A DNA stretch of 64,000 nt from an uncultured Alphaproteobacteria bacterium. GTDB lineage: Bacteria; Pseudomonadota; Alphaproteobacteria; Acetobacterales; Acetobacteraceae. Shown piece after piece: positions 6,199 through 56,342 of this stretch. Both the position numbers and the translations under genes were made by a program. The notes beneath the pieces were generated by a model. The model was not told the origin of the DNA. It did not search any database and saw nothing but the letters and a program-made list of their open reading frames with translations. Each line of letters starts with the position of its first letter. Positions within the stretch are counted from its first letter, which is position 1. The stretch is from the NCBI GenBank assembly GCA_963773345.1, contig CAVZBG010000001.1, positions 39,306 to 103,305 on the forward strand, given 5' to 3'.

Positions 6199-7138
6199 TT
6201 ACCGCGTGCTGAGCAGGATCTCGACCCGCCCATCGTGCGGGTACTGCGGATCGTTGACTTGTATCGCGGAGTCCGGCACGCCGGCCTGGGCCAACGCGGC
6301 ACGCACCGTATTGACACGCTGGGCGCTCAGGTTCGGATTGAGCGGGTTCATGGTGCCGTCGATGCCAATCTGCAGCGACGGGTTCCTGGCGAGATACATC
6401 GCGATCAGGCCGGCCATGTTCTGGTCGGACGCCCGAATGTTCGCCGTGCCGCGATCAAACGTGAAATCACGGTATTCGGTCCAGTGAGCGATTTCACCAA
6501 CCGGTCCCTGGGCACCCATCGGCCCGGTCGGTCCCGGCATGCCTTGCGCGCCGGAGAGACCGGCACCGCCGACACCACCGGCCATCATGGAGCCGCGTGC
6601 GCCGGTCTGACCACTCATCCCCTGGCTTCCGGTACCGCCGGCACCGCCGGCGGGTCCGGTCGGGCCGACCAGGGTCGCGCCTTGGACGCCCATTTCTCCG
6701 GGCGCGCCCTGTGCGCCAACGGGTCCGGCGGGACCAGTCGGGCCCGCCGGGCCAGCGGTGCTATATCCTTGCGCGCCCGTCTGCCCAGACATGCCCTCCG
6801 CGCCAGCCGGACCGACCGCGCCGGTCGGACCACGCGCGCCGACCACCACCGCGCCCGCGGGTCCCGCCACGCCGGGTGAACCTTGCGGACCCGAGGGGCC
6901 GGACGGGCCCGGCATGCCGGCGGGACCAGTCTCGCCGTAGCCGGCGGCGCCCGTCTGGCCGATCGGGCCTTGCGGGCCGGGCGGACCGGTCGGTCCGGTG
7001 AAGCCGGCAGGCCCAACCAGAACTCGGTTGCACGGGCGCAACGTATGTCGTCGCGGTAGTTGTCTCGGTGGTGGTTGGCGTGGCGCTGCAAGCCGCGGCA
7101 GACACAGCGACCGCCGCAAGGAGAATGGTGCGTTTCAT
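6199..7138 (-). pseudogene. Collagen-like (Gly-X-Y repeat) lipoprotein with OmpA-like C-terminal domain; one frame break between signal peptide and repeats
   Basis: MKRTILLAAVAVSAAACSATPTTTETTT (lipobox) is in one frame. About 190 aa of GXY triplets (GPAGFTGPTGPPGPQGPIGQTG...) and a C-terminal LSAQRVNTVRAALAQAGVP...RVEILL are in another. The junction is near 7020-7040. Confidence 0.65.
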
Positions 7139-13215: not shown

Positions 13216-14012
13216 GGCGGACTTCGGCCCGCACCGCTGCCGATGGGGCCAGCACCGCCATCGGGCATGGCAAAAACGTCTTGGATCGATTTGATTTCCG
13301 GCAAGATATAAACAATACCGCGTGTGCCGGTGAAAGCTTTGAGCACTACTTCATTGTAGAATCTCACGGGGACGTTGATGCAGCCGTAGGTAATTCTCTT
13401 GTCGAGTGGGGACGACGTCGCCAATCGCTGCAGTCGATGGTCGCCGGGGTTGCCGGTGACCACACGATGAAGACCGACGGCGGCGCGGTAATCTATCCAA
13501 AGAATATCCTGGTCCATGTCACGGCCCAGGACGGCCACGAACCGGCCCGCCGGGGTCGTTCGCTCGTCCGGCCGTATGGTAGATAATTTTTGGCTGCCTA
13601 TACCGGGGACGGTATCGTCGCCGCGGGCCTTGCCCAGAAGCGCGAATGTGGCGCCGCGCAATCGCCCAACGTTGTCAAAGACGAATACTTTCGCTTCGAT
13701 TTTGTCGATGATTACGAAGGGCAAGCCGCCATTGTCGCCTGTCGCCACAACCCAATCCGCCACGCGCCGCGTATCTTTCGAGGCAATCTCTCCAAGGAAA
13801 TCCGCTCCTTGCGGCTGGCTCGCCCGTGACGATGGGACAGGCGGCGCCGGACGAGCGGATGCGTCTGGATCGGCGGGAACCGCCTGATTGGCAACGGCGA
13901 GGAGCGAAGCATTGCGCGCTGGAGCGAGGGTCGGCCATGCCAGCACGACCGCCACCAGGACCAGTCGAATTCCCCTCACGGTGTTCTTTATGGTCTTCGC
14001 CATTCTACGCAT
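13194..14012 (-). CDS. L,D-transpeptidase (YkuD) family protein, secreted
   Basis: N-terminal signal-like IRLVLVAVVLAWPTLAPA. C-terminal GLHRVV...ITYGCINVP resembles the H...GC catalytic motif. Confidence 0.6.
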   Translation of the reverse strand: MRRMAKTIKNTVRGIRLVLVAVVLAWPTLAPARNASLLAVANQAVPADPDASARPAPPVPSSRASQPQGADFLGEIASKDTRRVADWVVATGDNGGLPFVIIDKIEAKVFVFDNVGRLRGATFALLGKARGDDTVPGIGSQKLSTIRPDERTTPAGRFVAVLGRDMDQDILWIDYRAAVGLHRVVTGNPGDHRLQRLATSSPLDKRITYGCINVPVRFYNEVVLKAFTGTRGIVYILPEIKSIQDVFAMPDGGAGPIGSGAGRSPPRLMVTQ

Positions 14013-14027
14013 GACCGGTTGTGGTTT

Positions 14028-16429
14028 CTAGAAACGAGCTGGCTTGGGTGGAAACTCTGGCACCGCGGGCACGGCAGCCGGCACCGCCGGGGTCGGCAGG
14101 CTTACGCCGCCACCGAGCACGGTGAAGTTGACTCCTGGACCGAAAAGCACCGGCGCGAACAACTCAGGAATCACAGTCGGCGCCAGAATTAGTGTCGGTG
14201 ATGGCGTTGGTGTCGGAGTTGGGGTCGGTGTCGGAGTTGGTGTCGGAGTTGGTGTCGGAGTTGGTGTCGGTGTCGGAGTTGGTGTCGGTGTCGGAGTTGG
14301 TGTCGGTGTCGGAGTTGGTGTCGGAGTTGGTGTCGGTGTCGGCGTTGGCGTTGGTGTCGCTGGGGTGATAGTCCCGCTCGTTCTAAACCCGGTAACGCAG
14401 CAGTTAGCCGCGAGCGCATAGTTAGCGGCGTCTGGACCACCGAGTGTATAGCCATTAAAGGTGACGCCGATGTCTGATCCCGCGCTCGAACTATCAAAAA
14501 CGGCGGTCGCTCCCTGACCGGCCACCAAAGTGACCCCGACAGGGACACCAGAGACAGAGGTGCTATTGAACCCGCCCGTGAGGGTCGCCATCGTCGAGCC
14601 GGCGGAACCCACAGCAGTCGGGAAGACCAACATGTATTCAGTCAGCGTGGGACCCCCGGTCAGGGTGAAGTCAGGTGAATAGTCGGTCGGCGTCGCGTAT
14701 GAGGTCGGATTGTAATCAATGACGATTGCGAGGGGTGTCGCGTTTGACTTCGTGACCGTAATGGGTGGAGTACCGGGATCGATAATCAGGGTGCCGCCGG
14801 CAGCACCCGGTCCGGTACCACCATTACCAGCGATCAGCGTCATCCCCGATGGCAGGTTGAGGTCCTCAGAGGGAATAGTGCTGCCGTTGGTCAGCGTAAG
14901 AGCCGCGCTTGTGGTCAGGTGGATATTATCCGCGGCGCAAATCTCGATGTTTCCGTCGGTCGTCGTCATGGCCGCGTTCAAATTCATGTTGCGCCCAGCG
15001 CTCAATAAAACGCTGCCATTGACGGTTGTAATCGCTGCATTCACGGTGACATCGCGGCCACAACACACCACAAAGTTTCCGTTGGTTGCGGAAATTGCCA
15101 AATTCAGGTTCACGTCGCGAAAGGCGTCCAACGTCAGAGTGGTTGGGCTCGATGACGCCGTCCAACTGATCGCATCGTTGATGGTTATGTCGCCGCTACC
15201 AGGTGTCGAAGACAAATAAGTGGTCGTGGGAGGGGTTCCGGGGGCCGTAACCGGATTGGGGGCGCCGGACGTCAATGGAGTGATGGTACTGATGACCACG
15301 CTGTTCGTTACCAGCAGAGCGTCGAGTGTTGCGCCAGAGACGTTGCCTCCCGTAGGGGCAACGGTGAAATCCACGGGATCGATTGACAAGGTGCCGGTCA
15401 GCCCCTTGGGGGCGGCGGTGGTGATTTTTGCGGTTTTCGCGATATTCACGTGCGCGGCAGACGTTTCGATGGCGCCCCCATTCCCACCATTGGGGGCGCT
15501 GGCGTCCAGTGTCCCGGCTACGTTCACCGTGCCGCTCTGCATGTCGCCGAGAAGGCTGATTCTGCCGTTGTGGATGCCGACCGTCTGGGCCTCGATGACG
15601 CCCGTATTGTTGACCACGGTCTTGAGCAATTGGCCGGCCGCCTGCGCGGTCATCACCACCTGTCCGCCATTCGCCCGGATCACGCCACCGTTCTTTACGA
15701 GCGCCTTCACTGCACCTTTGTCGACGGCGACATTGAGCAAGCCGTCGCCAGCGACGTCAAGCGTGATGGCCCTTCCGGCGGCCAGCGTCACGGTGCCCAG
15801 CCGGGCGGTGATCAGGCCTTCGTTGTCGACCTTGGCGCCCAGCAGGGCGATGTAGCCGCCGCCGTCGGCGTTGATAGAGCCCCGATTGACAATCGCGCTA
15901 TTGCTGGACCCGGCGAATTTATAATTGCCCGCCATGAAGTTGGCGTCGGTGATGCCCAGGGTTGAGGTCACCAGCCCGCCGACGTTCACCTGCGCGCCCT
16001 TGGCGAACAGAACGCCGTTCGGGTTCACCAGGAAGACCTCGCCATTGGCCGACAGGCTGCCCAGTATGCTCGACGGATTCCCCCCAGAACGCGGTTCAGC
16101 GTGACCGAAGTGCTGTTCGGCTGGTCGAACTTTACGGCTTCACCCTGACCGATGCTGAAGTTCTGCCAGTTGATCACCGCTTTCTGGCTGGCCTGGTCGA
16201 CAGTGACCGTGCTCTTGGTGCTCGCAATGCTGGCCGAGCCTGCCGCGACCGTCCCGTCGGTCGGTAACGCATAGGCATTCGGTCGAACCGCCAGCACCAG
16301 GGTGACCGCCAGCCTCAGCACGCCCAGGTAACAGCCTCCGGAGAGGGCGGTAGAGCCGAGCCAACCGGCGCGTTTGATGGACATCGCGTGGCGGGTCGCG
16401 GGCACGAGATGACCGATTCTGTCGTTCAT
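14028..16429 (-). pseudogene. Two-partner-secretion exoprotein (TpsA; filamentous-haemagglutinin N-terminal domain protein) split by a 1-nt frameshift; start approximate
   Basis: ORF 16025-16453 carries [33 protein letters not shown]. The next frame continues [37 protein letters not shown] (the TPS-domain consensus). Beta-helix repeats follow, then an MBG/YDG-like segment ([20 protein letters not shown]) and a long (TP)n tract. Confidence 0.8.
14199..14362 (-). repeat. Hexanucleotide-type tandem repeat encoding more than 30 consecutive Thr-Pro dipeptides near the TpsA C-terminus
   Basis: ggtgtcggagtt/ggtgtcggtgtc units on the + strand. The translation is [11 protein letters not shown]...TPSPT. 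Confidence 0.9.
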
Positions 16430-28647: not shown

Positions 28648-28713
28648 TTCTCCCCCTCCCCTTGAGGGAGGGGGTTGGGGGGAGGGGTCCCGCAGCAAGG
28701 TGCTTCGCTTTGA
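28648..28713. repeat. REP-like element (ctccccctccccttgagggagggggttggggggagggg + tcccgcagcaag), copy A
   Basis: The same core occurs at 36361-36427 and, as an inverted pair, at 41821-41928. Confidence 0.85.
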
Positions 28714-28800: not shown

Positions 28801-29877
28801 ATGATGCCCGCCCTCCGACCCTGGCTCGCCCGCCACCGCGACCACTTGTGGTTGGCGTTGCGCATGCTCATCTCCGCGACGGCGGCCTATGCGCTCGCCC
28901 AGGCATTCGGCCTTGCGCAAGGCTACTGGGCCGTCCTCACCACCATCATCGTCACGCAAAACAGCGTCGGCGGTTCGTTGAAGGCGGCAATCGATCGCCT
29001 GATCGGCTCGATCTGCGGCGCGCTGGTCGGCGCCGCCGCCGCCCTGCTGCTGCCGTCGCACACGCCGCTGATCCTCGGCGTTGCCCTGATCGCCGCGCTG
29101 ACGCCGCTCGCCGTGCTCACTGCCTTCTATCCGACCTACCGCATCGCCCCGATCACCGCGATCATCGTGCTCATGAGCACCGGCACGGCCTCGCTCGGCC
29201 CGCTCGCCTATGCCTTTAACCGCGTGCTCGAGATCACCCTCGGCGCGGTGGTCGGCGTGGTCGTCAGCACGCTGATCGCCCCGGCGCGCGCCTACGCGCA
29301 ACTGCGCACGGCGGCGGCGGAGACCGCGCGGCTGCTCGCCCAGGTCATGACGGCCCTGGCGCAGGCGGTCGGCGCCGAGGCCACCGCGCTCGGCACGCTG
29401 CCGACCCAAATCCAGGCGGCCCTGAACCGCCTCGCCACCGCCGCCGACGACGCCGCGCGCGAGCGCCGCTCCCGCCTGTCCGACCACCCGGACCCCGAGC
29501 CGCTGTTCCGTACCCTGCGCCGGCTGCAGCAGGACATCCTGGCGCTGCACCGCATGTTCGGCACGCAGTGGCCCGACGCCGTGCGGGCAGCGCTCGCCGC
29601 CCCGTGGGCAACCTATGCCGAGGCCGTCGCAGCGACGCTGCGCAGCCTCGCCGACGCCCTGACAGCGCGCCAGCCGCCACCCGACACCGCGCTTCCGCGG
29701 ACCCAGCTTGCCGGCTTCATCGCCGCGATCGAAACCATGCGGCGCGAAGGCGCCACCCGTGCGCTGTCCACCGATCTGGTCGGTCGCATTCTCGGCAGCG
29801 CCTTCCGGGCGGAGCAATTGCAACGCGACCTCGACGACCTGACCGAGCGCACCCACGAGGTGGCGGCGACGCGCTGA
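28801..29877 (+). CDS. FUSC (aromatic-acid exporter/fusaric-acid-resistance-like) family membrane protein
   Basis: LRMLISATAAYALAQAFGLAQGYWAVLTTIIVTQNSVGGSLKAAIDRLIGSICGALVG followed by a helical C-terminal domain. Confidence 0.7.
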   Translation: MMPALRPWLARHRDHLWLALRMLISATAAYALAQAFGLAQGYWAVLTTIIVTQNSVGGSLKAAIDRLIGSICGALVGAAAALLLPSHTPLILGVALIAALTPLAVLTAFYPTYRIAPITAIIVLMSTGTASLGPLAYAFNRVLEITLGAVVGVVVSTLIAPARAYAQLRTAAAETARLLAQVMTALAQAVGAEATALGTLPTQIQAALNRLATAADDAARERRSRLSDHPDPEPLFRTLRRLQQDILALHRMFGTQWPDAVRAALAAPWATYAEAVAATLRSLADALTARQPPPDTALPRTQLAGFIAAIETMRREGATRALSTDLVGRILGSAFRAEQLQRDLDDLTERTHEVAATR

Positions 29878-36360: not shown

Positions 36361-36427
36361 CTACTCCCTCTCCCCTTGAGGGAGAGGGCTGGGGTGAGGG
36401 GTCCCGCAGCAAGTACTTCGCTGTGAT
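36361..36427. repeat. REP-like element, copy B
   Basis: ctccctctccccttgagggagagggctggggtgaggggtcccgcagcaagtacttcgctgtga, compare 28648-28713. Confidence 0.85.
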
Positions 36428-39203: not shown

Positions 39204-39323
39204 CCCGGCCCATCCCGGGGCCGCCGGCCGCACGCGACGGGCGCACCTGACGCGCGCTTCTGATCCACGGCCCGGCGCGGTAGACTGCCCGCCCAACAAC
39301 CCGAACCCGGAAGGCAGACGCCC

Positions 39324-39704
39324 ATGGCCATGACCGTCAACGACATGCTCGCCGCCGCCCGCGCGGCGGTGCCCGCGATCACCCCAGCCGAGGCCGTCGA
39401 ACTGGTCCGCAGCAAGGACGCGCTGATCGTCGATGTGCGCGACGGCACCGAGGTGAAAGCCAGCGGCAAGGCAAAGGGCGCCGTCGCCGTGTCCCGCGGG
39501 CTGCTGGAGTTCCGTGCCGACCCCGCGGCGCCGACGCATGATCCGGCGTTCCGCACCGACCGCCCGATCCTGCTGTACTGCGGTTCCGGCGGCCGCGCCG
39601 CGCTTGCCGGCAAGACGCTGCGCGACCTGGGGTTCACCGACGTGCGCAATCTCGGCGGCTTCAAGGACTGGGTGGCGGCGGGCGGCGAGGTCGAGCCGGG
39701 CTGA
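39324..39704 (+). CDS. Rhodanese-like domain protein
   Basis: 126 aa with LLYCGSGGRAALA (active-site Cys loop CxxxxxR). Confidence 0.8.
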   Translation: MAMTVNDMLAAARAAVPAITPAEAVELVRSKDALIVDVRDGTEVKASGKAKGAVAVSRGLLEFRADPAAPTHDPAFRTDRPILLYCGSGGRAALAGKTLRDLGFTDVRNLGGFKDWVAAGGEVEPG

Positions 39705-39774
39705 GCCGCGCCGCTCCGGGCATGCTAAGATTGGGCACTCGCGATACAGCGAGCCTACCAGAGTCCCAGACGGC

Positions 39775-40305
39775 ATGTCCGAAGCGCCGACCTCCTATCG
39801 CCAACCTGACCTCTATTGGAAACAGTTCGTCCAGTTGAAGGCCGCCTCGATCTGTATACGGCTGTATCGGAACCGGCTTGCCCGCTGGGTGCGGGGAGTC
39901 GAGTTGATCAAGGCGGTCGGGTCATCGGGGGGCATTGCCGCCTGGGTAATCTGGAAGGATTGGCCCTTTCTGTGGTCGGGCATAATAGCCGCGTCTCAAT
40001 TCCTAGATGCCACGAAGCACGTGTTTCCGTTCGCCCGGCACCACAAGGCCGCAAGCGATCTGACCGTGGCCCTCGAACTTCTTTGCATTGACGCAGAGGT
40101 CGAATGGGAAAGCATCTACGCAGGCAGGGTTCCCGATGATGGTATCACGGAGCGCAAGGCGCGGCTGGCCAAACTGCAACTGGAAGCCGAGCACAAACAC
40201 TTTCCGGAGGGCTTCGAGCCGAGTCAGAAGCTGATTGACCTGGCAACCGAGGAAGCGGACACCTATTTTCTGGTGACTTATGGCGAGGACCAAAACCTTG
40301 ACTGA
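39775..40305 (+). CDS. Hypothetical two-transmembrane-helix protein (SLATT/DUF4231-like topology, unverified); first gene of the low-GC cassette
   Basis: 176-aa ORF. An amphipathic N-helix (YWKQFVQLKAASICIRLYRNRLARW) is followed by two hydrophobic helices (VELIKAVGSSGGIAAWVIW, PFLWSGIIAASQFLDA) and a charged helical C-terminus. G+C is visibly lower than in the flanks. Confidence 0.5.
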   Translation: MSEAPTSYRQPDLYWKQFVQLKAASICIRLYRNRLARWVRGVELIKAVGSSGGIAAWVIWKDWPFLWSGIIAASQFLDATKHVFPFARHHKAASDLTVALELLCIDAEVEWESIYAGRVPDDGITERKARLAKLQLEAEHKHFPEGFEPSQKLIDLATEEADTYFLVTYGEDQNLD

Positions 40306-40513
40306 ACGCCACCAGCCCCTTCACAAGGTCCGGCTTAACGAGGGCTTGGGCAAGAGCATCTTTCCGTTGTTCAATGTCAATGCTCCTATGCCATCTGGCA
40401 CCGCGGCCCCGCCTCAGGTGACAGTTGTCTCTCCCAGTCCCTCGGCCGCAACTATCCCAGCAAACTCTGGCACGGCGGGATCATCCCGGACGGGACCTGG
40501 CGAGAAGTCATGA
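40280..40513 (+). CDS. Small hypothetical protein (77 aa), paralog 1 with FPxFxVxAPMPxGxAxP core and a Ser/Thr/Pro tail
   Basis: Overlaps the upstream ORF by 26 nt and the downstream ORF by ATGA. The core is conserved with the next ORF despite synonymous codon differences. Confidence 0.45.
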   Translation: MARTKTLTERHQPLHKVRLNEGLGKSIFPLFNVNAPMPSGTAAPPQVTVVSPSPSAATIPANSGTAGSSRTGPGEKS

Positions 40514-40719
40514 ATACGTCGTCTTCGCCACCCGACGCCGACGGTGTCGAGACGTCAATTCATACATCTTTTCCGACCTTCAAGGTGACCGCACCCATGC
40601 CTCGCGGTATGGCGTTGCCGAAAGCGTCGGCAGAGGTTGCAAAATCGGGAACGACGACGCCTTCGACGCCAACGCAGTCACCGCCGACGCAGAAGCCTGC
40701 TCAGGGGCCAAGTGAGTAG
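40510..40719 (+). CDS. Small hypothetical protein (69 aa), paralog 2 with FPxFxVxAPMPxGxAxP core and a Ser/Thr/Pro tail
   Basis: TSFPTFKVTAPMPRGMALP compared with SIFPLFNVNAPMPSGTAAP. Its stop lies 1 nt before the next ATG. Confidence 0.45.
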   Translation: MNTSSSPPDADGVETSIHTSFPTFKVTAPMPRGMALPKASAEVAKSGTTTPSTPTQSPPTQKPAQGPSE

Positions 40720-40720
40720 A

Positions 40721-40885
40721 ATGGAGGCCCTAGAACACGCCCGCAAAGCTGTAACGATATTGGAGCGGATAGCCGTCAACCCGGTTGGCCCGACGCTGCG
40801 AGACGAACTTGCGTTGGCGAAGGCTGAGTTGAACGACGCCCTGAAAGCAGTTGGCCAGTCTGTCGACCTCGCCACGGGCGGATAG
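40721..40885 (+). CDS. Small helical hypothetical protein (54 aa), last gene of the cassette
   Basis: MEALEHARKAVTILERIAVNPVGPTLRDELALAKAELNDALKAVGQSVDLATGG. Tightly packed behind the previous ORF. Confidence 0.35.
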   Translation: MEALEHARKAVTILERIAVNPVGPTLRDELALAKAELNDALKAVGQSVDLATGG

Positions 40886-40974
40886 GTCGCCGCGAGTTGT
40901 GTAGCGGTTGCACCCCACGGGGCTGTTGACCTCATCGGTCACCGCGTACTGAACGGCCGACAACAACTGAGTGA

Positions 40975-41012
40975 GGACGGATGTCCGGGAGTTCGATGCC
41001 CGCCGGTCCACC
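40975..41012 (+). other. Degenerate tRNA/tmRNA 3'-end-like sequence (possible att scar)
   Basis: ggacggatgtccgggagttcgatgcccgccggtccacc resembles GGACG..CGGGTTCGA.TCCCGCCG..TCCACC(A), but the T-stem pairing is imperfect and no complete tRNA can be folded. Confidence 0.3.
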
Positions 41013-41079
41013 GCGCTGCAACCCAGCATTCACGGCGCCGGCCTTCCCCATGCGAGGCGGCTTGGTGTAAGGCGCCCGC

Positions 41080-41931
41080 ATGACCGCGCCCTATCCCGCC
41101 GCCGCCCTGGCCCCCGGGCCTGACCCGGGGACGGACGCCGCCGCGCCGCTGATCCTGGCGCTGCCCAAGGGCCGCATCCTCGCCGAATGCGGCGCCCTGC
41201 TGGCGCGCGCCGGCGTCAACCCGGCACCCGACTACGCCGACGAGGACAGCCGCCGGCTGCGCTTTCCCACCGACGATCCGCGGCTCGACGTGGTGCGGGT
41301 GCGCCCGTTCGACGTCGCCACCTTCGTCGCCTTCGGTGCCGCGCAGCTTGGCATCTGCGGCGCCGACGTGCTGATGGAGTTCGACTACCCGGAGATCTAC
41401 GCCCCGCTCGATCTCGGCATCGGCCGGTGCCGGGTCTCGGTCGCCGAACCGGCGGAGACCGCCGGCAGCGACGACCCCTCGCGCTGGTCGCGCGTGCGGG
41501 TGGCGACCAAGTATCCCAACATCGCCCGCCGGCACTATGCCGCGCGCGGCATCCACGCCGACGTGGTGCACCTCAGCGGTGCGATGGAGCTGGCGCCGGG
41601 ACTGGGCCTGTCGCGGCTGATCGTCGACCTGGTGCAGACCGGCTCGACACTGAAGGCCAACGGGCTGGTGGAGACCGCGGTGATCGCCCAGGTGACCAGC
41701 CGGCTGATCGTCAATCGCACGGCGCTGAAGACGCAGCCCGAGGTGATCGGCGCCTGGATCGCCCGGTTCCGCGCCGCGCTGGGACAGGATGAGGGTCGGC
41801 GGTGGCATGAAGCAACAGAGACTCCCCCTCCCCTTGAGGGAGGGGGTTGGGGGGAGGGGTGCCAACCGGCAAAGCTGGCGACCGTTGGCACCCCTCTCCC
41901 CAACCCCCTCCCGCAAGGGGAGGGGGAGTAG
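41080..41931 (+). CDS. hisG: ATP phosphoribosyltransferase (short HisG) whose ORF reads about 45 codons into a REP element
   Basis: LILALPKGRILAE...VATKYPNIARRHYAARGIHADVVHLSGAMELAP.LGLSRLIVDLVQTGSTLKANGL. The tail ...TPPPLEGGGWGEGCQPAKLATVGTPLPNPLPQGEGE is encoded by the repeat. Confidence 0.85.
   Translation: MTAPYPAAALAPGPDPGTDAAAPLILALPKGRILAECGALLARAGVNPAPDYADEDSRRLRFPTDDPRLDVVRVRPFDVATFVAFGAAQLGICGADVLMEFDYPEIYAPLDLGIGRCRVSVAEPAETAGSDDPSRWSRVRVATKYPNIARRHYAARGIHADVVHLSGAMELAPGLGLSRLIVDLVQTGSTLKANGLVETAVIAQVTSRLIVNRTALKTQPEVIGAWIARFRAALGQDEGRRWHEATETPPPLEGGGWGEGCQPAKLATVGTPLPNPLPQGEGE
41821..41928. repeat. REP-like element, copy C (two inverted units forming a long hairpin)
   Basis: ccccctccccttgagggagggggttggggggaggggtgccaac ... 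gttggcacccctctccccaaccccctcccgcaaggggaggggg. Confidence 0.9.
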
Positions 41932-43233: not shown

Positions 43234-43401
43234 TGGGGCGTTTTGAATCTCTGCACCGGGTGGAAAGCGCCTGTTCGGCGACCCGGTGACACCATCGGAA
43301 CCTGCAAAGGCGGCAGGCCTGCTTCCGTTGCATCATTCAGGAACTTCGCAACAAGGACAGCCCAACCGACAGCATGGGTCACACGATTTCGCTAGCTGGT
43401 A

Positions 43402-44520
43402 TCAACTCAACCGCCGGGTGAACATCCACGCCGCACCGGCAAGCGTGCATAGTCCGATCATGCCAAGTGGCAGAAAATCCGAGCCCAACTGAGCGAATCC
43501 GGCATCCTCCAGGAAAACCCGTTTGGTAAGGTCCAGGGCGTAGAGAAGTGGATTAATGACCATCGCGGTCTGGAGGAAATCCGGCATGCTGCTGACCGGT
43601 GTCGCCAAACCGGAGAGCAAGGCAAACGGCATCACCAGAAGGAATGCGTACAACATAGCCTGTTGCATGGTCTTCGCGATGGAGGACACGAAAAGGCCGA
43701 CGCCGACCGCGGCCATCAGGAACAGGCCGAGCCCGGAATAAAGCACGATAAAGGATCCGACAAACGGAATGCGAAACCAGAACTGCGCGATCAGCAGAAT
43801 GGTGGTCGCCTGACCCAGGCCGATGACCATGTTGGGAACCGCCTTTCCCGCCATGATCTCGAACGGCCGGAACGGCGTGACCAGAAGCTGATCGAACGTC
43901 CCCTGCTCGCGCTCGCGGGCGACGGACATCGCCGTCAGCATCAATGTGCCCATCAAGGTCAGCGTGCCGATCAGGCTTGGGATCATGCTCCAGCGTGAAT
44001 CCAGGTTGGGATTGTACCATGCGCGGGTGACGACCCGAAGCAATGGGTCTGGCTGACTATGATTGGCGCGCCAGTCGGCGTTGAAATCGTCGACCACGGT
44101 CTCGACGTAGCCCAGTGCGGTCCCGGCGGTGTTGGAGTTGCGGCCATCGGCGATGACCTGGACCGGTGCCGGTTCGCCGGCCAGCAGGTGGCGTTCGAAA
44201 TCCTGCGGGATCTGAATGACCAGAAGCGCGCGGCCGCTGTCGATCCAGGTGGTAATGTCCTCGATCCGGCGCAGATCGGCCTGGCGCTGAAAGATGCTGG
44301 ATCCATCCAGGCGGGCGAGCAGGGCGGTGGAGGCCGGACTGCGGTCCTGGTCAAGCACCGCGTAGAAAACGGAATTGAGGTCGAAGCTGGCGGCGTAACC
44401 GAACAGCAGGCACTGCAAGATCGGCGGCACAAAAATGATGAAGCGGCTGCGCGGATCCTTCAGGACGGCGAGAAACTCCTTCCGGATCAGAGCGACGATG
44501 CGAAGCAGCGAGGCAAGCAT
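43402..44520 (-). CDS. ABC-2 type transporter permease (YbhR/YhhJ-like)
   Basis: Intact 372-aa ORF. An N-terminal TM and a large periplasmic loop are followed by five TM segments (SVAREREQGTFDQLLVTP). Confidence 0.8.
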   Translation of the reverse strand: MLASLLRIVALIRKEFLAVLKDPRSRFIIFVPPILQCLLFGYAASFDLNSVFYAVLDQDRSPASTALLARLDGSSIFQRQADLRRIEDITTWIDSGRALLVIQIPQDFERHLLAGEPAPVQVIADGRNSNTAGTALGYVETVVDDFNADWRANHSQPDPLLRVVTRAWYNPNLDSRWSMIPSLIGTLTLMGTLMLTAMSVAREREQGTFDQLLVTPFRPFEIMAGKAVPNMVIGLGQATTILLIAQFWFRIPFVGSFIVLYSGLGLFLMAAVGVGLFVSSIAKTMQQAMLYAFLLVMPFALLSGLATPVSSMPDFLQTAMVINPLLYALDLTKRVFLEDAGFAQLGSDFLPLGMIGLCTLAGAAWMFTRRLS

Positions 44521-44529
44521 GCCAATGTC

Positions 44530-45649
44530 TCAGGAAAGCTGCTTGCGGGTCGCCAACCGCGTGGCCGCCAACAGCACCGTGGCCATTACCCCTAGAATCG
44601 CCAGGTCGAGCCAGACCACGTCGCCGATATCGCCCGCGAGATACAGTGTTTGCATCAGCGAGACCGCGTATCGCGCCGGCAGGACATAGGTGATCCACTG
44701 GACGACCGCCGGCATGCTGCGCAGATCATAGATGAAACCAGACAGCATCATCGCCGGCAGGAAGGTCAGCGTCATGACCAATTGGCTGGCGAGGAACTGG
44801 CTCTTGACCAGTTGTCGACACCAGCAGTCCAATGCCCAGGGCGACCAGAAGGTATACCGCCGCGGCGAGGCAAAGCATCAGCAGCGACCCGCGGAGCGGC
44901 ACATGGAACAGGAACTGGGCCGCCAGGACGCAGAGCACGAAACCGATCGTGCCCAATCCAAAGTACGGAATAATTTTGCTGATGAGAAACTCTCCCGGCA
45001 GCATCGGCGTGACGAACAGCGCTTCGAGCGTTCCCCGTTCCCATTCCCGGGCGATCACCATGGCGGTGAGGAAGGCGCCGATGATGGTCATCACCATGAC
45101 AATCAGGCCCGGGACGATGAAGTAACGACTATTGTTGGTTTCGTTGAACCACATCCGGTCGACGACAATCACCGGGCCGGCTGAGGCACCGCCGACCTGT
45201 GTCGCGCTCCATAAAGCGACCGGTCCTTGGGCATACGCTTGCATGATCCGCGCCTGGTTCGAGTCCGTGCCGTTGACCAGAATCTGGAGTTCCGCCCCGT
45301 CGGCGTGCATGCGCCGGGTGAAATCGGACGGGATCAGCAAGGCTCCGTCCACTTGCCGGTTCATCACCAGCGTGGTCGCCTGGGCGATCGAGGGAACCAC
45401 CGTCACGCCGAAATAGGTCGAAAGCCGGAACGCGCCGATCAGGCCCGCGCTGTCGGCGGAGGCGTCCTGATCGACCACGGCGACGTTCACCCGGGTGACA
45501 TCGAGCGAGAGCCCATATCCGAACAGCAGAATCATGATCATCGGAAACACGATGCCGATCGCGACGCTGCTCGGATCGCGCAAGATCTGCCGCGTTTCCT
45601 TGAGGGTCAGCGCGCGAATTCGCCGCAATTTCGCCAGCCATCCCGTCAT
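44530..45649 (-). pseudogene. ABC-2 type transporter permease (YbhS-like) with one frameshift near 44815
   Basis: MTGWLAKLRRIRALTLKETRQILRD...AREWERGTLEALFVTP...GIGLLVST is followed in another frame by LVKSQFLASQLVMTLTFLPAMMLSGFIYDL... Removing one a from acaactg restores continuity. Confidence 0.7.
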
Positions 45650-54638: not shown

Positions 54639-54911
54639 ATGGTGATGACCAGCCGCGGCCGCACACGCCGCGCAGCAACAAGCCAGGAAATTCCCGCCTT
54701 GACGACCCCTCCGATCGCCCAGCCCGCCACGCCTCCCCTCGGGCGCTGCCCGATCTGCAACCGTCCCGCCGTCCCCGCGAGTCGCCCGTTCTGCAGCCCG
54801 CGCTGCGCCGAGGTCGATCTCGGGCGCTGGCTCACGGGCCACTATGTCGTGCCCGGCCCCCCGGCTGACCTGGACGACGACCCGCCGCCGGCGCCGGACC
54901 GCAGCGCTTGA
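54639..54911 (+). CDS. yacG: DNA gyrase inhibitor YacG (zinc-ribbon); true start probably further downstream
   Basis: [29 protein letters not shown]. Confidence 0.75.
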
Positions 54912-54965
54912 TCGCCTGACCCCCTTGCGGTATCCCCCAACGCGTCGTGCATGCTGCGCGCGAAT

Positions 54966-55041
54966 GCCCAGGTAGCTCAGTTGGTAGAGCATGCGACTGA
55001 AAATCGCAGTGTCGGTGGTTCGATTCCGCCCCTGGGCACCA
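54966..55041 (+). tRNA. tRNA-Phe (anticodon GAA), CCA encoded
   Basis: Hand-folded cloverleaf. Acceptor GCCCAGG/CCTGGGC, D arm GCTC..GAGC, anticodon arm TGCGA-CTGAAAA-TCGCA, T arm GGTGG-TTCGATT-CCGCC. Confidence 0.95.
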
Positions 55042-55139
55042 CTCTAACTCCCGAATATATCAGCATATTCTGGGTTTTCTGAATCTCATCGCCGTTTTCG
55101 TCAGACCAGCGTCTGTGTAATTCCTGTGTAAATGGGGCA

Positions 55140-56342
55140 TCAGGAAGCGCGTGCCGATCTCTTTTTCGGTCGATAGCGATCATCGAGCTTATCCATCGCT
55201 TCCGCGATATGGGAGCCGGACTGGTGGGCGTACCGCTCGACCATCGCCATGGTCTTATGGCCGCTGATGCGCTTGACGGTTGGCAGATCGACTCCCGCCT
55301 GAACCAAGTGCGTGATGGCGGTATGACGGAGGGTGTGGCGGACGACCTGCTTGGGGTCGAGGCCCGCGGCGGTCACCGCGCGCACAAACGCCTTGCGGAC
55401 ATCGACCGTATGCCCCTGCAAGGCTCCCACCGAAGGAAACAGCCAGGGCGTGCCCTTCGGCAAGGTGTCGATGTATTCGGTCAGGAACGAAGCCAGGTCA
55501 GCCGAAATCGGCTGCGTGCGGGCACCCGCTTTCGCCGCGGGGACATAAATTGACCTCGCGTCAAGGTTCACGTGCTCACGGCGAATGGCAAGGATTTCCG
55601 ACTTGCGCATCCCCGTCCGCAGTCCAATCAGTATGAACGGATAAATCTGACGATTTTGGTCTGACTTGGCGCCCTCCAACAGGGCCGTCGCCTGGACCGG
55701 GGACAGGTAGACGATACGACCGTTGTCCTCTTTCAGCTTCCGTATTTTCGCCGGCTGCCGCTCGGTCCAGCCCCATTCGACCGCCTTGTTGAGCAGGTGC
55801 GACAGAGTCGCCAACTCGCGGTTGACGGTGGCCGGTTTGTTCATTTGCAGTGGTTGCCCCGTCACCGGTTTCTTGCGGGTCTGGACAGGCTGGCTGAGGC
55901 GATGCTTCTTGTAACGTTCGATATCGGAGCTGGTGATCTGGCCGATCTGAAGTTCTCCCAGGAATGGGACAAGGCACTGCTGGAGCCGTTGGCGCTTGCG
56001 GTCAATTTCCCTTCCCCCTTCCTCACGAAGGCGGTCGAGATAAAGCGGTGCTGCCGCAGCGAGTGTTAATGGCACCTTTCTGCGCTTCGGCAGGTGCAAT
56101 CGACCTTCCCGCGCATCGTGACGGACTTTCGAGATGAAGTCTTCCGCCGTGGTTCTGGTGACGCCATCTGATTCACGGCCGAGATTTCGATGGATACGCT
56201 TTCCGTCCACCATGACGTTGACCGAGAACAGGCCGTCACCATTGCCCAGTCGTTCGAACGTAATACCCTGTTCACTCAGACGTTCGCCCGGCTGTAGGGC
56301 GCGTGTCCTCGTACGAGTGATCTTGCTAAAGGTTCGGGTCAT
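55140..56342 (-). CDS. Tyrosine-type site-specific integrase
   Basis: 400-aa ORF 98 nt from the tRNA-Phe 3' end, with an N-terminal SAM-like domain. Catalytic-domain motifs include GLRTGMRKSEILAIR...HTLRHTAITHLV...ISGHKT..MVERYAH. Confidence 0.9.
   Translation of the reverse strand: MTRTFSKITRTRTRALQPGERLSEQGITFERLGNGDGLFSVNVMVDGKRIHRNLGRESDGVTRTTAEDFISKVRHDAREGRLHLPKRRKVPLTLAAAAPLYLDRLREEGGREIDRKRQRLQQCLVPFLGELQIGQITSSDIERYKKHRLSQPVQTRKKPVTGQPLQMNKPATVNRELATLSHLLNKAVEWGWTERQPAKIRKLKEDNGRIVYLSPVQATALLEGAKSDQNRQIYPFILIGLRTGMRKSEILAIRREHVNLDARSIYVPAAKAGARTQPISADLASFLTEYIDTLPKGTPWLFPSVGALQGHTVDVRKAFVRAVTAAGLDPKQVVRHTLRHTAITHLVQAGVDLPTVKRISGHKTMAMVERYAHQSGSHIAEAMDKLDDRYRPKKRSARAS

Follow-up and report, generated by a model that had tools for sequence, protein, structure and literature searches.

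A two-gene locus pairing a putative SLATT-like membrane protein with small motif peptides

Introduction

Immunity of the CBASS, DRT and RADAR types often ends in a 2TM protein of the SLATT type as its effector, and SLATT proteins occur in DRT10/UG17, DRT3, RADAR and AbiA systems. The SLATT layout comprises an N-terminal helix, two adjacent transmembrane (TM) helices joined by a short loop, and a cytoplasmic helical region (PMC9812332, PMC9226505). How SLATT effectors are gated is acknowledged as an open question in the DRT10 preprint, which also cites the proposal that SLATT proteins are pores or exporters (Burroughs 2015). A protein of the DUF4231/SLATT superfamily is required for motility in Agrobacterium (PMC9812332); the superfamily thus has non-defence roles as well.

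Here we describe an unnamed pair of genes, found in a 64,000-nucleotide stretch of DNA from an uncultured alphaproteobacterium that was analysed as a whole and that we call the window. The pair consists of a gene for a putative membrane protein (ORF1) and one or more genes for short peptides that share a conserved motif (ORF2 and ORF3). The features of the locus, in window coordinates, are as follows:

39708..41062, no strand: inserted segment of 1355 bp, G+C 0.604, between the rhodanese stop and a point 17 nt short of the hisG start
39775..40305, + strand: ORF1, 176 aa, from a large and unnamed protein family that remotely resembles SLATT-type 2TM effectors
40298..40513 (TTG start, 71 aa) or 40280..40513 (ATG start, 77 aa), + strand: ORF2, first motif peptide, with orthologues directly downstream of ORF1 homologues
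40510..40719, + strand: ORF3, 69 aa, second and more divergent motif peptide (core HMM iE 1.7e-8)
40721..40885, + strand: ORF4, 54 aa, orphan candidate ORF inside the inserted segment
40886..41062, no strand: 3' remainder of the insertion, without recognisable feature

Results and discussion

The locus is a recent insertion next to hisG

The segment is flanked by a rhodanese gene (PF00581, E 5e-15) on one side and by hisG (PF01634, E 1e-46) on the other. In two metagenome relatives (L062 and L064), which share 89% amino acid identity with the window in the rhodanese and 86-90% in HisG, DNA homology to the window ends at 39707 and restarts at 41063; only ~49 nt lie between the two breakpoints, which constitutes an empty site. 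As the rhodanese gene of these close relatives directly adjoins hisG, 39708-41062 is an insertion, and it was acquired horizontally. This bears out an earlier, sequence-only reading of the window, which had taken the cassette to be foreign. That reading had also pointed to a lower G+C between the rhodanese gene and hisG. The dip exists (0.604 across the segment vs 0.71 and 0.72 in the flanks), but it lies only ~1.5 sd under the window mean (0.666, sd 0.04), and equally low stretches are found elsewhere in the window; it is the empty site of the relatives, not the GC dip, that decides in favour of a foreign origin.

The tRNA-like scar that had been proposed next to the cassette was not recovered: ARAGORN found no tRNA near the segment, no Rfam family matched at E<=1 within 39300-41300, and RNA folding of 40880-41070 gave z = +1.3, i.e. 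no structural signal. Promoter and terminator consensus scans returned no site. A search for flanking direct repeats yielded a sole candidate, an 11-nt GC-rich sequence with its second copy within hisG, which we rejected as probably due to chance.

The conserved unit is smaller than four genes

The coordinates of four packed ORFs, all on the + strand, were reproduced as originally read, and so were the junctions between them: a 26-nt overlap between ORF1 and ORF2 (with the ATG start of the latter), an ATGA overlap between ORF2 and ORF3, and a 1-nt gap between ORF3 and ORF4. None of the four ORFs has a significant match in Pfam, NCBIfam, PADLOC or PHROGs. The idea that they form a conserved four-gene set did not survive comparison with other genomes, which share only ORF1 and the motif peptide(s) and leave ORF4 an orphan. 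The conserved unit is therefore ORF1 plus motif peptide(s).

A search of 5.8 billion clusters at E<=1 returned no homologue of ORF4, tblastn against 51 related loci matched it in the same strain alone, and its exact sequence is absent from a 15-billion-protein collection and uncalled in its own genome. It is overlapped by a minus-strand ORF (40730-41029), which a gene caller preferred when run on another assembly of this sequence (L050); minus-strand ORFs overlapping ORF4 have no Pfam match. Its earlier description as a gene could thus not be upheld. Having neither homologue nor counterpart in related loci, ORF4 was dropped from the module, outside which it lies as judged by these comparisons. 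The one hint of a holin at this locus was a sub-threshold match of ORF4 to Phage_holin_3_6 (E 0.02).

ORF1 belongs to a large family with remote similarity to SLATT proteins

ORF1 has at least 205 close homologues, and its family comprises 934 clusters (50% identity, E<=1e-3). From the N-terminus, the protein consists of a basic helix, a hydrophobic helical hairpin, a KxVFPF hinge that is nearly invariant in the family, and an acidic helical C-terminal domain. The hairpin has hydropathy maxima at residues ~41-60 and 62-85 and a 4-residue loop, WKDW, with positive charge on both flanks. The AF2 model (pLDDT 79.7) contains five helices, at 9-59, 64-80, 85-115, 121-142 and 151-169. Model, hydropathy and charge agree with the helix, two TM helices and charged tail that had been read from the sequence, the TM hydrophobicity being marginal: no 19-residue stretch exceeds a mean Kyte-Doolittle value of 1.25. 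Across the family the hairpin maximum averages ~1.37, and it is 1.6 or higher in 26 of 49 diverse members.

Searched at E<=10, the window protein itself matches nothing in Pfam, NCBIfam and PADLOC, and it has no PHROG match either. Among 24 + 49 family members searched against Pfam no family was identified, just single sub-threshold matches, and profiles of ORF1 and of the peptides found nothing among PDB sequences. Several relatives do, however, match SLATT-type models weakly. The homologue P0086 aligns with DUF4231 over the hairpin (E 0.026; at 15.4 bits this is sub-threshold, the cut-off being 24.7), and one family member aligns with NCBIfam SLATT_1 (E 0.057). Divergent members match the PADLOC models for CBASS 2TM effectors (E 3.8e-4 to 7e-3), DRT RTasSLATT (E 2.8e-3) and 4TM (E 8.4e-5), all below the curated thresholds; the alignments to 2TM (PDLC00690, PDLC00677) and to RTasSLATT are co-linear and near full-length (E 4e-4 to 4e-3). 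A further homologue, P0063, bears the UniRef name 'SMODS and SLOG-associating 2TM...'. TM-like composition could inflate the scores of such remote matches. The SLATT/DUF4231-type topology first guessed for ORF1 is thus favoured by weak but convergent matches of its relatives, while the window protein matches no model. In its predicted structure, ORF1 shows the N-terminal helix, the two adjacent hydrophobic helices with their short connecting loop and the helical C-terminal region of the SLATT layout, and it is similar in size to SLATT/2TM effectors (~160-190 aa).

ORF2 and ORF3 encode related motif peptides

ORF2 has a basic N-terminus, followed by the core GKSIFPLFNVNAPMPSGTAAPP (40349-40414) and a Ser/Thr/Pro/Ala-rich tail; the core is 69% identical to first-copy peptides from other Alphaproteobacteria. 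Of the two possible starts, the TTG at 40298 is more likely than the ATG at 40280, because it is preceded by GAGGA 7-8 nt upstream and gives an 8-nt overlap with the ORF1 stop, like the orthologues. ORF3, which begins at the ATGA, carries the core IHTSFPTFKVTAPMPRGMALPK (40558-40623) and a Thr/Pro/Ser/Gln-rich tail. The two were correctly recognised as paralogs with a common core (BLASTP 14/27 identical, E 4e-6), and 5 of the 11 core residues common to both are indeed encoded by differing synonymous codons (gtc/gtg, gct/gca, cct/ccc, cca/cct, ggc/ggt). The selection on the peptide that these codons had suggested is evident in a set of 58 peptides, where mean pS is 0.71 vs a pN of 0.38 (0.72 vs 0.41 for the ORF3 core); synonymous sites have reached saturation, and the two invariant prolines are encoded by each of the four Pro codons. 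Second or third peptide copies are present at 12 or more other loci. We asked whether ORF3 falls into a conserved 'second-copy' class, but it lies about as far from one class as from the other (0.48 vs 0.40), and we thus do not claim that the copies stem from one ancient duplication.

The peptides as a group are mostly basic (median net charge +2), 63% end in K/R, and Cys is found in 3 of 118. They are rich in proline and alanine and are predicted to be intrinsically disordered; in line with this, the AF2 model of ORF2 is a disordered chain save for the motif, with confidence of 70-82 solely over the motif. The exact ORF2 and ORF3 sequences are both absent from the 15-billion-protein collection and uncalled in their own genome.

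The peptides accompany ORF1 in two phyla

The ORF1-peptide pair is found in Alphaproteobacteria and Acidobacteriota, with one to three motif peptides of 45-90 aa directly 3' of ORF1 homologues. Carriers include Caulobacter vibrioides OR37 and Methylobacterium oryzae CBMB20. The motif spans ~20 residues, (K/D)S-x-I-(F/M)-P-x-(F/V)-x-V-x-(V/I)-P-M-P-x-G-x-A-x-P overall, and takes the form GKSIFPTFxVxVPMPxGTAxP in Alphaproteobacteria and xSxIMPxVTVxIPMPxGAAxP in Acidobacteriota. The pattern FPxFxVxAPMP, originally put forward as a check, led to a mixed outcome: the motif recurs elsewhere, but in its strict form at only one other locus. As this pattern is too narrow, a looser one was used together with an HMM. 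Of the matches to the loose pattern, 43 lie on the + strand no more than 1.2 kb 3' of an ORF1 homologue, and the remaining 1.04 Mb contains one. With the core HMM, a peptide was detected in nearly all of the ~47 loci with enough downstream DNA; L038 and L040 were missed, and the peptide of L043 is degenerate. A peptide-profile search retrieved 153 small proteins that other pipelines had called, and a reverse look-up from the peptides found an ORF1-family gene 10-20 nt upstream in 4 of 4 sampled cases.

The distance from the ORF1 stop to the peptide start is 18 nt or less in ~38 of 40 loci. A 4-nt overlap is seen in 12 loci, mostly alphaproteobacterial, and a gap of +14 to +18 nt in most acidobacterial ones; in this arrangement, the peptides are translationally coupled to ORF1. 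In the homologue P0157, the motif is fused in frame at the ORF1 C-terminus, and P0324 carries a second, partial fusion. The last 80 aa of ORF1 homologues have a mean charge of -5.6, complementary to the +2 of the peptides.

Genomic context

When the ORFs found up to 6 kb to either side of 50 loci were all clustered against one another, the ORF1 family was the only group that the loci shared; contexts differ among the closest relatives. Most chromosomal copies lie between ordinary housekeeping genes, outside defence islands, and loci are syntenic within clades (e.g. 10 Terracidiphilus-type loci); a physiological role would also fit these two properties. Two copies are on plasmids. On one of these, pMOC4, an HEPN_AbiU2 gene lies directly upstream of the ORF1 homologue; it was found on pMOC4 only, and was rejected as a general component. 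A nearby AbiEii gene, a HicB-like neighbour and a nearby recombinase-like ORF were also seen. For the defence, toxin-immunity or small-peptide system that had first been proposed, the context is thus suggestive at a few loci only. In ~60 loci, Pfam-annotated neighbourhoods and clustering revealed no CD-NTase/SMODS, SLOG, TIR or reverse-transcriptase (RT) partner. The phage collections INPHARED and IMG/VR yielded no relatives, and a phage origin was therefore rejected; for the same reason, and for want of an endolysin neighbour, we discarded a phage holin as an identity for ORF1. RiPP precursors were likewise discarded for the peptides, given the lack of conserved enzyme neighbours and the rarity of Cys.

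Comparison with known systems and a possible mechanism

The pair resembles toxin-first toxin-antitoxin (TA) modules such as higBA, hicAB and mqsRA in being a compact, bicistronic coupled pair, in its patchy distribution with insertion among housekeeping genes and plasmid copies, and in its small, disordered downstream partner, which recalls many labile antitoxin regions. Like TA modules, the two genes are adjacent and have an accessory, mobile distribution, as seen from the gaps, the empty site and the plasmids. Unlike them, the pair has no relation to any Pfam, NCBIfam or PADLOC TA family, its putative toxin ORF1 is a membrane hairpin protein and neither an RNase nor a kinase, and the motif peptide has no DNA-binding domain and comes in 1-3 diverged copies. 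Multiple diverged antitoxin copies 3' of the toxin are atypical of classical TA systems, which speaks against a TA-like reading. A tight coupling of the effector gene to a partner gene is shared with SLATT-RT operons as described in the DRT10 preprint. The partner in SLATT systems is a nucleotide-signalling enzyme or RT, whereas the only conserved partner of ORF1 is a disordered motif peptide; in the sources covered by a full-text literature search, we found no description of such a peptide partner for SLATT proteins.

The reading we favour, and which we put forward tentatively, is that ORF1 may be an enzyme-free, SLATT-like membrane effector that is regulated by the co-translated, disordered peptides, in a TA- or abortive-infection-like module. 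ORF1 would then be a divergent SLATT-like 2TM effector with both termini in the cytoplasm, able to oligomerise and to perturb the membrane. The peptide motif might act as a docking strand for the cytoplasmic domain of ORF1, becoming ordered upon binding, and the disordered tail would be what docking delivers. As a regulator, the peptide would take the place that a nucleotide signal or a sensor enzyme has in CBASS and DRT systems; it would most likely be a labile inhibitor, the loss or titration of which frees ORF1. That the pair represents an undescribed, enzyme-free two-gene conflict class, in which a SLATT-like effector is gated by dockable disordered peptides with no nucleotide messenger, is a bolder and rather doubtful proposition. 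In such a class, the cytoplasmic domain would be clamped by the I(F/M)PxFxVxVPMPxG strand that the peptides conserve, perhaps through mimicry of the KxVFPF hinge of ORF1 itself; peptide degradation, titration or proteolysis by phage or stress would fire the effector, and duplicated, diverged peptides might widen the range of what is sensed.

It is instructive to weigh this against a reading of ORF1 as a peripheral or hairpin membrane-remodelling or stress scaffold of the PspA/Vipp1/ESCRT-III kind, with the peptides as adaptors or clients and no conflict system involved. The modelled fold, in which three helices come after a long helical hairpin, shares its all-helical build of a long hairpin plus shorter helices with these proteins, and Foldseek against the PDB returned generic helical or ESCRT-III matches, the top ones all from the ESCRT-III superfamily (CdvB2, CdvB, IST1 and Vipp1/PspA; Vipp1 TMq 0.51-0.56). 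The hairpin is only marginally hydrophobic for true TM helices, many loci are housekeeping-flanked and syntenic within clades, and the motility requirement in Agrobacterium (PMC9812332) involves a protein of the DUF4231/SLATT superfamily. We nonetheless consider a scaffold unlikely. None of the Foldseek matches is significant (best E 0.022; TM 0.3-0.56, rmsd 17-28 A), Pfam searches with 73 ORF1-family members gave neither Snf7 nor PspA_IM30, and the hairpin tip of ORF1 differs from ESCRT-III in being hydrophobic and Trp-rich, with no sequence-profile similarity; the profiles favour 2TM/SLATT effectors instead. The patchy distribution, the demonstrable recent insertion and the plasmid copies also argue against it.

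Still less probable, in our view, is that the peptides are a leaderless, secreted proline-rich bacteriocin or signal and ORF1 its pore, exporter or immunity protein. Every locus lacks a signal or leader peptide, a processing protease, an ABC exporter and a modification enzyme, conservation in the peptides peaks in a short internal motif and not in a mature-peptide region, and ~1:1 translational coupling would be unusual for a secreted product. While small, largely cationic peptides that mostly lack Cys, frequently end in K/R and, in a manner common among bacteriocin genes, have been duplicated and have diversified (1-3 copies) would suit such a role, as would the pores or exporters proposed for SLATT proteins (Burroughs 2015, as cited in the DRT10 preprint), the natural fusion of the motif to the cytoplasmic C-terminus of ORF1 argues for docking and not for release. 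Finally, we regard it as extremely improbable that ORF2-ORF4 are untranslated artefacts and that the conservation reflects a DNA or RNA element 3' of ORF1. The exact sequences of all three are indeed missing from the 15-billion-protein collection, and for ORF4 alone the absence of homologues and the competing minus-strand ORF point the same way; the motif of ORF2 and ORF3, however, is conserved in one reading frame only across two phyla, with saturated synonymous sites and freely varying Pro codons, in open frames of 44-90 codons that are always present and whose starts are coupled to the ORF1 stop. The 153 homologous proteins called by other pipelines and the lack of Rfam and fold signals further oppose this explanation.

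Under the favoured reading of a peptide-regulated SLATT-like effector, the pair would offer a minimal, self-contained case of gating, made up of a ~170-aa effector-like protein and a ~60-aa peptide; with a genetically defined regulator, a conserved 20-residue motif and a natural fusion, mutagenesis and complex modelling should be able to test the gating directly. If its role is physiological, the pair would still be a new partnership of a membrane protein and an IDP in abundant soil lineages. In either case, a sizeable unnamed family (934 clusters) is seen to have a peptide as its obligate partner, in the alpha- and acidobacterial branches at the least, and more than 150 small proteins, often missed by gene callers, are added as a family. 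Distant ORF1 relatives end in disordered C-terminal tails of 41-60 aa that do not contain the motif.

The cassette and its insertion site

Between a rhodanese gene (PF00581, E 5e-15) and hisG (PF01634, E 1e-46) lie the four plus-strand ORFs that a sequence-only reading had placed there, and their junctions are as it described: ORF1 and ORF2 overlap by 26 nt, ORF2 and ORF3 by ATGA, and a gap of 1 nt precedes ORF4.

Features of the cassette
39775-40305, +, ORF1, 176 aa
40280-40513, +, ORF2, 77 aa
40510-40719, +, ORF3, 69 aa
40721-40885, +, ORF4, 54 aa
39708-41062, inserted segment, 1355 bp, G+C 0.604

Relatives of the site were sought by a metagenome scan with the rhodanese. In two of the loci found, L062 and L064 (rhodanese 89% identical at the protein level, HisG 86-90%), hisG comes directly after rhodanese; DNA homology to the window stops at 39707 and restarts at 41063, with only ~49 nt between these points in the relatives. 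Judged from these alignments, the empty sites indicate that the 1355-bp stretch 39708-41062 was acquired in this lineage, in line with the foreign origin first proposed for the cassette. A third locus, L061, has a closer rhodanese (94% aa identity) followed by a different gene, so that the rhodanese 3' junction is variable in this lineage; when L061 2113-2585 is set against the window from 39705 onward, an ABC substrate-binding-protein-like gene stands in place of hisG and the cassette.

The reported dip in G+C is present (0.604 across the segment vs 0.71 and 0.72 in the flanks), but since other stretches of the window are equally low (mean 0.666, sd 0.04 at this window size), composition by itself is weak evidence. 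The adjacent tRNA-like scar did not hold up, as no tRNA-like or other RNA element was found beside the cassette; nor did the inserted segment yield a convincing target-site duplication, an integrase, or a promoter or terminator consensus.

Elsewhere in the window, G+C falls as low (0.58-0.60) at ~54900-56100, ~13900-14600 and ~43300-45000; the first of these begins at a tRNA-Phe gene (54966-55041) and could be an island tied to that tRNA. ARAGORN's call of a 'tRNA-???' at 29407-29495 (-), where the anticodon has two bases and the GC-rich DNA looks protein-coding, is probably a false positive. A REP-like palindromic element (41821-41929; two 46-nt arms, 96% complementary, 17 nt apart) sits in the 3'-terminal part of hisG, immediately ahead of hisD, and further copies of one arm occur at 28653-28680 and 36367-36394 (4 matches vs 0 expected). 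Of the 283 aa of the hisG ORF, the Pfam HisG domain reaches to residue 231; the last ~50 codons appear to be supplied by this element.

A widespread pair of genes

We found at least 205 close homologues of ORF1 (57-89% identity), every one annotated as 'hypothetical', and a full HMMER scan extended the family to 934 clusters at 50% identity (E <= 1e-3), nearly always of 160-190 aa. Scanning one genome per species gave 49 loci, alphaproteobacterial (Methylobacterium, Caulobacter, Acetobacteraceae, Hyphomicrobiales, Rhodospirillales, Stellaceae) and acidobacteriotal (Terracidiphilus, Acidobacteriaceae, Bryobacterales, Sulfotelmatobacter). Almost every locus carries 1-3 motif ORFs of 45-90 codons on the same strand, directly 3' of the ORF1 homologue; no other gene is common to all loci, and neighbours are kept only within sub-clades. 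Neither family has an entry in Pfam, NCBIfam, PADLOC or PHROGs in this alpha/acidobacterial branch, where both are unnamed, and we met no description of the pairing in the literature searched.

Of the matches to a loose motif pattern, 43 fall in the 54 kb that lie downstream of ORF1 homologues on the plus strand, and one in the other 1.04 Mb with all six frames counted. Starting from the peptides, a profile search returned 153 small proteins, all of them unnamed and lacking a Pfam domain, and each of the four peptides that were sampled from long contigs had an ORF1-family gene 10-20 nt upstream (HMM E 1e-54 to 1e-62). The linkage is thus strong in both directions. The spacing from ORF1 stop to peptide start is tightly constrained: 12 loci, most of them alphaproteobacterial, have an overlap of 4 nt, and acidobacterial loci mostly a distance of +14 to +18 nt. 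For ORF2, orthologue starts, an 8-nt overlap with the ORF1 stop and a GAGGA 7-8 nt upstream make TTG 40298 the probable start, with ATG 40280 less likely. ORF4 has no counterpart in related loci and no homologue of any kind was found; a minus-strand ORF competes for its DNA. It is an orphan, and the four-gene set as proposed contracts to ORF1 and its motif peptide(s), which alone recur elsewhere.

The motif peptides

ORF2 and ORF3 share a core, SIFPLFNVNAPMPSGTAAP and TSFPTFKVTAPMPRGMALP respectively (BLASTP E 4e-6), in which 5 of 11 identical residues use different synonymous codons. The alphaproteobacterial motif reads GKSIFPTFxVxVPMPxGTAxP and the acidobacteriotal one (K/D)SxIMPxVTVxIPMPxGAAxP, each followed by a tail rich in Pro/Ala/Gln/Ser. 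In a set of 58 peptide cores, the four Pro codons occur about equally often at the two invariant prolines, and mean pairwise differences are 0.71 at synonymous sites (saturated) vs 0.38 at non-synonymous ones; ORF2 and ORF3 themselves differ by 0.72 and 0.41. The motif is kept in a single reading frame, and neither an RNA family nor a stable fold was found to overlap it. These patterns argue that the peptides are real coding sequences, and they uphold the view of ORF2 and ORF3 as paralogues under selection; that the two are not translated seems to us hardly credible.

By its core, ORF2 ranks with the typical first copies (69% identity to the others), and ORF3 is a second copy that has diverged further; on the Methylobacterium oryzae plasmid pMOC4 there are three copies, coupled to one another, and several acidobacterial genes hold two motifs within one ORF. 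Among 118 peptides, Pro makes up 17% and Ala 16%, Cys and Trp are nearly absent, the median net charge is +2 and the last residue is Lys or Arg in 63%. From an alignment of 62 sequences AlphaFold2 predicts a chain without secondary structure, with raised confidence (70-82) at the motif only, as for a disordered protein with one putative binding element.

ORF1 as a probable SLATT-like membrane protein

The AF2 model of ORF1 is all-helical (pLDDT 79.7).

Predicted elements of ORF1 (AF2)
residues 9-59, helix of 51 residues
WKDW, tight turn between helices 9-59 and 64-80
residues 64-80, returning helix
KxVFPF, nearly invariant hinge after the returning helix
residues 85-115, 121-142 and 151-169, further helices

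The hydrophobic part is the hairpin tip (41-85). The two hydrophobic helices expected of a two-TM protein are there, but both are marginal (best 19-residue Kyte-Doolittle mean 1.25). Together with this tip, a basic N-terminal flank (average +4.9 across the first 45 residues of homologues) and an acidic C-terminal domain (average -5.6 across the last 80) fit an N-in/C-in helical hairpin.

ORF1 of the window is given no name by Pfam, NCBIfam, PADLOC or PHROGs, and the likeness to SLATT proteins suspected from its topology finds its support in divergent family members, whose matches to effector models are co-linear and nearly whole-length. P0232 aligns over residues 19-163 to the CBASS '2TM' model PDLC00690 (24-169 of 187, E 3.8e-4) and over 7-92 to the DRT model RTasSLATT (5-92 of 158, E 2.8e-3); P0235 matches PDLC00677 (E 4e-3) and P0222 a 4TM effector model (E 8.4e-5). 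There is also a sub-threshold DUF4231 match across the hairpin of P0086 (E 0.026), a match of one member to NCBIfam SLATT_1 (E 0.057), and one homologue named a SLATT-domain protein by UniRef. In combination, these make remote homology to SLATT-type 2TM effectors likely, though unproven. SLATT proteins are predicted to act as pore-forming effectors in CBASS, DRT10, DRT3, RADAR and AbiA systems (DRT10 preprint; PMC9226505), and a DUF4231/SLATT protein is needed for Agrobacterium motility (PMC9812332).

A proposed docking model and the possible role of the pair

In one homologue, P0157, the motif is joined in frame to the ORF1 C-terminus (...ATYGQGLGPPAPERPKYKLEVADGVFVDSIFPDFEFDMPMPLRGRFAP...). 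In L010, a related locus from a long-read MAG, these segments lie in three frames (6440-6662), which could reflect indel errors or a real split. A second, partial fusion (P0324) joins an internal part of the C-terminal domain directly to a peptide, and more distant family members bear disordered hydrophilic C-terminal tails of 41-60 residues without the motif. From these cases, together with the coupling, the strict co-occurrence and the Lys/Pro-rich peptide of a Bacteroidota locus, we suggest that the motif is a docking strand for the cytoplasmic domain of ORF1, which would attach a disordered tail non-covalently; fused tails could dispense with it. The charges of the basic peptide and the acidic domain are compatible. 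The invariant K-x-V-F-P-F of ORF1 resembles K-S-I-F-P-x-F of the peptide, which could be mimicry of the hinge or chance. A 17-nt direct repeat (40015-40031 vs 40352-40368, 76% identity) encodes K-H-V-F-P-F in ORF1 and K-S-I-F-P-L in ORF2.

The Bacteroidota locus is on a Chondrinema litorale plasmid (NZ_CP111068.1, 1859-4571): the ORF1 homologue is distant (26% identity, HMM E 2e-36), and 4 nt after it comes a 43-aa peptide, annotated and rich in Lys and Pro, in which just a vestigial 'KSFP' is left of the motif. Directly upstream is a 208-aa protein of unassigned family, preceded by an AbiEii/AbiGii toxin gene.

The module is accessory: relatives show the site empty, its distribution is patchy and its contexts differ even among the closest relatives; it is also found on two plasmids. 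On pMOC4, HEPN_AbiU2 (E 5e-12) lies directly upstream, 4 nt from the ORF1 homologue, in what looks like an operon with the peptides; other conflict or mobile neighbours are the Chondrinema AbiEii toxin gene, a HicB-like gene (L051) and a recombinase-like ORF (L005). No nucleotide-signalling enzyme was linked to the module among the loci compared, and it was not found in the phage collections searched. Our leading, still tentative, reading is an enzyme-free SLATT-like effector regulated by its co-translated peptide, which most likely would be a labile inhibitor; such inhibition would give toxin-antitoxin or abortive-infection-like behaviour. Counting against this reading, many of the chromosomal copies have housekeeping genes as neighbours and keep their synteny within clades. 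A physiological membrane scaffold in the style of PspA/ESCRT-III is an unlikely alternative on balance; Foldseek of the ORF1 model against the PDB gave ESCRT-III-type matches only, none significant. Less probable again is that the proline-rich peptides are secreted, with ORF1 as their exporter or immunity protein.

Of the sequence-only reading, a SLATT-like ORF1, selected paralogous peptides and a foreign origin are supported; neither the tRNA scar nor the set of four genes is. We would class the module as a putative SLATT-like 2TM effector joined to a partner of a new type. It is clearly defined, occurs widely and lends itself to experiment, and it touches on the gating of SLATT effectors. 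On pMOC4 (M. oryzae CBMB20, NZ_JX627583.1, 4037-6110), the three translationally coupled peptides behind HEPN_AbiU2 and the ORF1 homologue have 63, 78 and 58 aa, and are absent from the distributed gene table.
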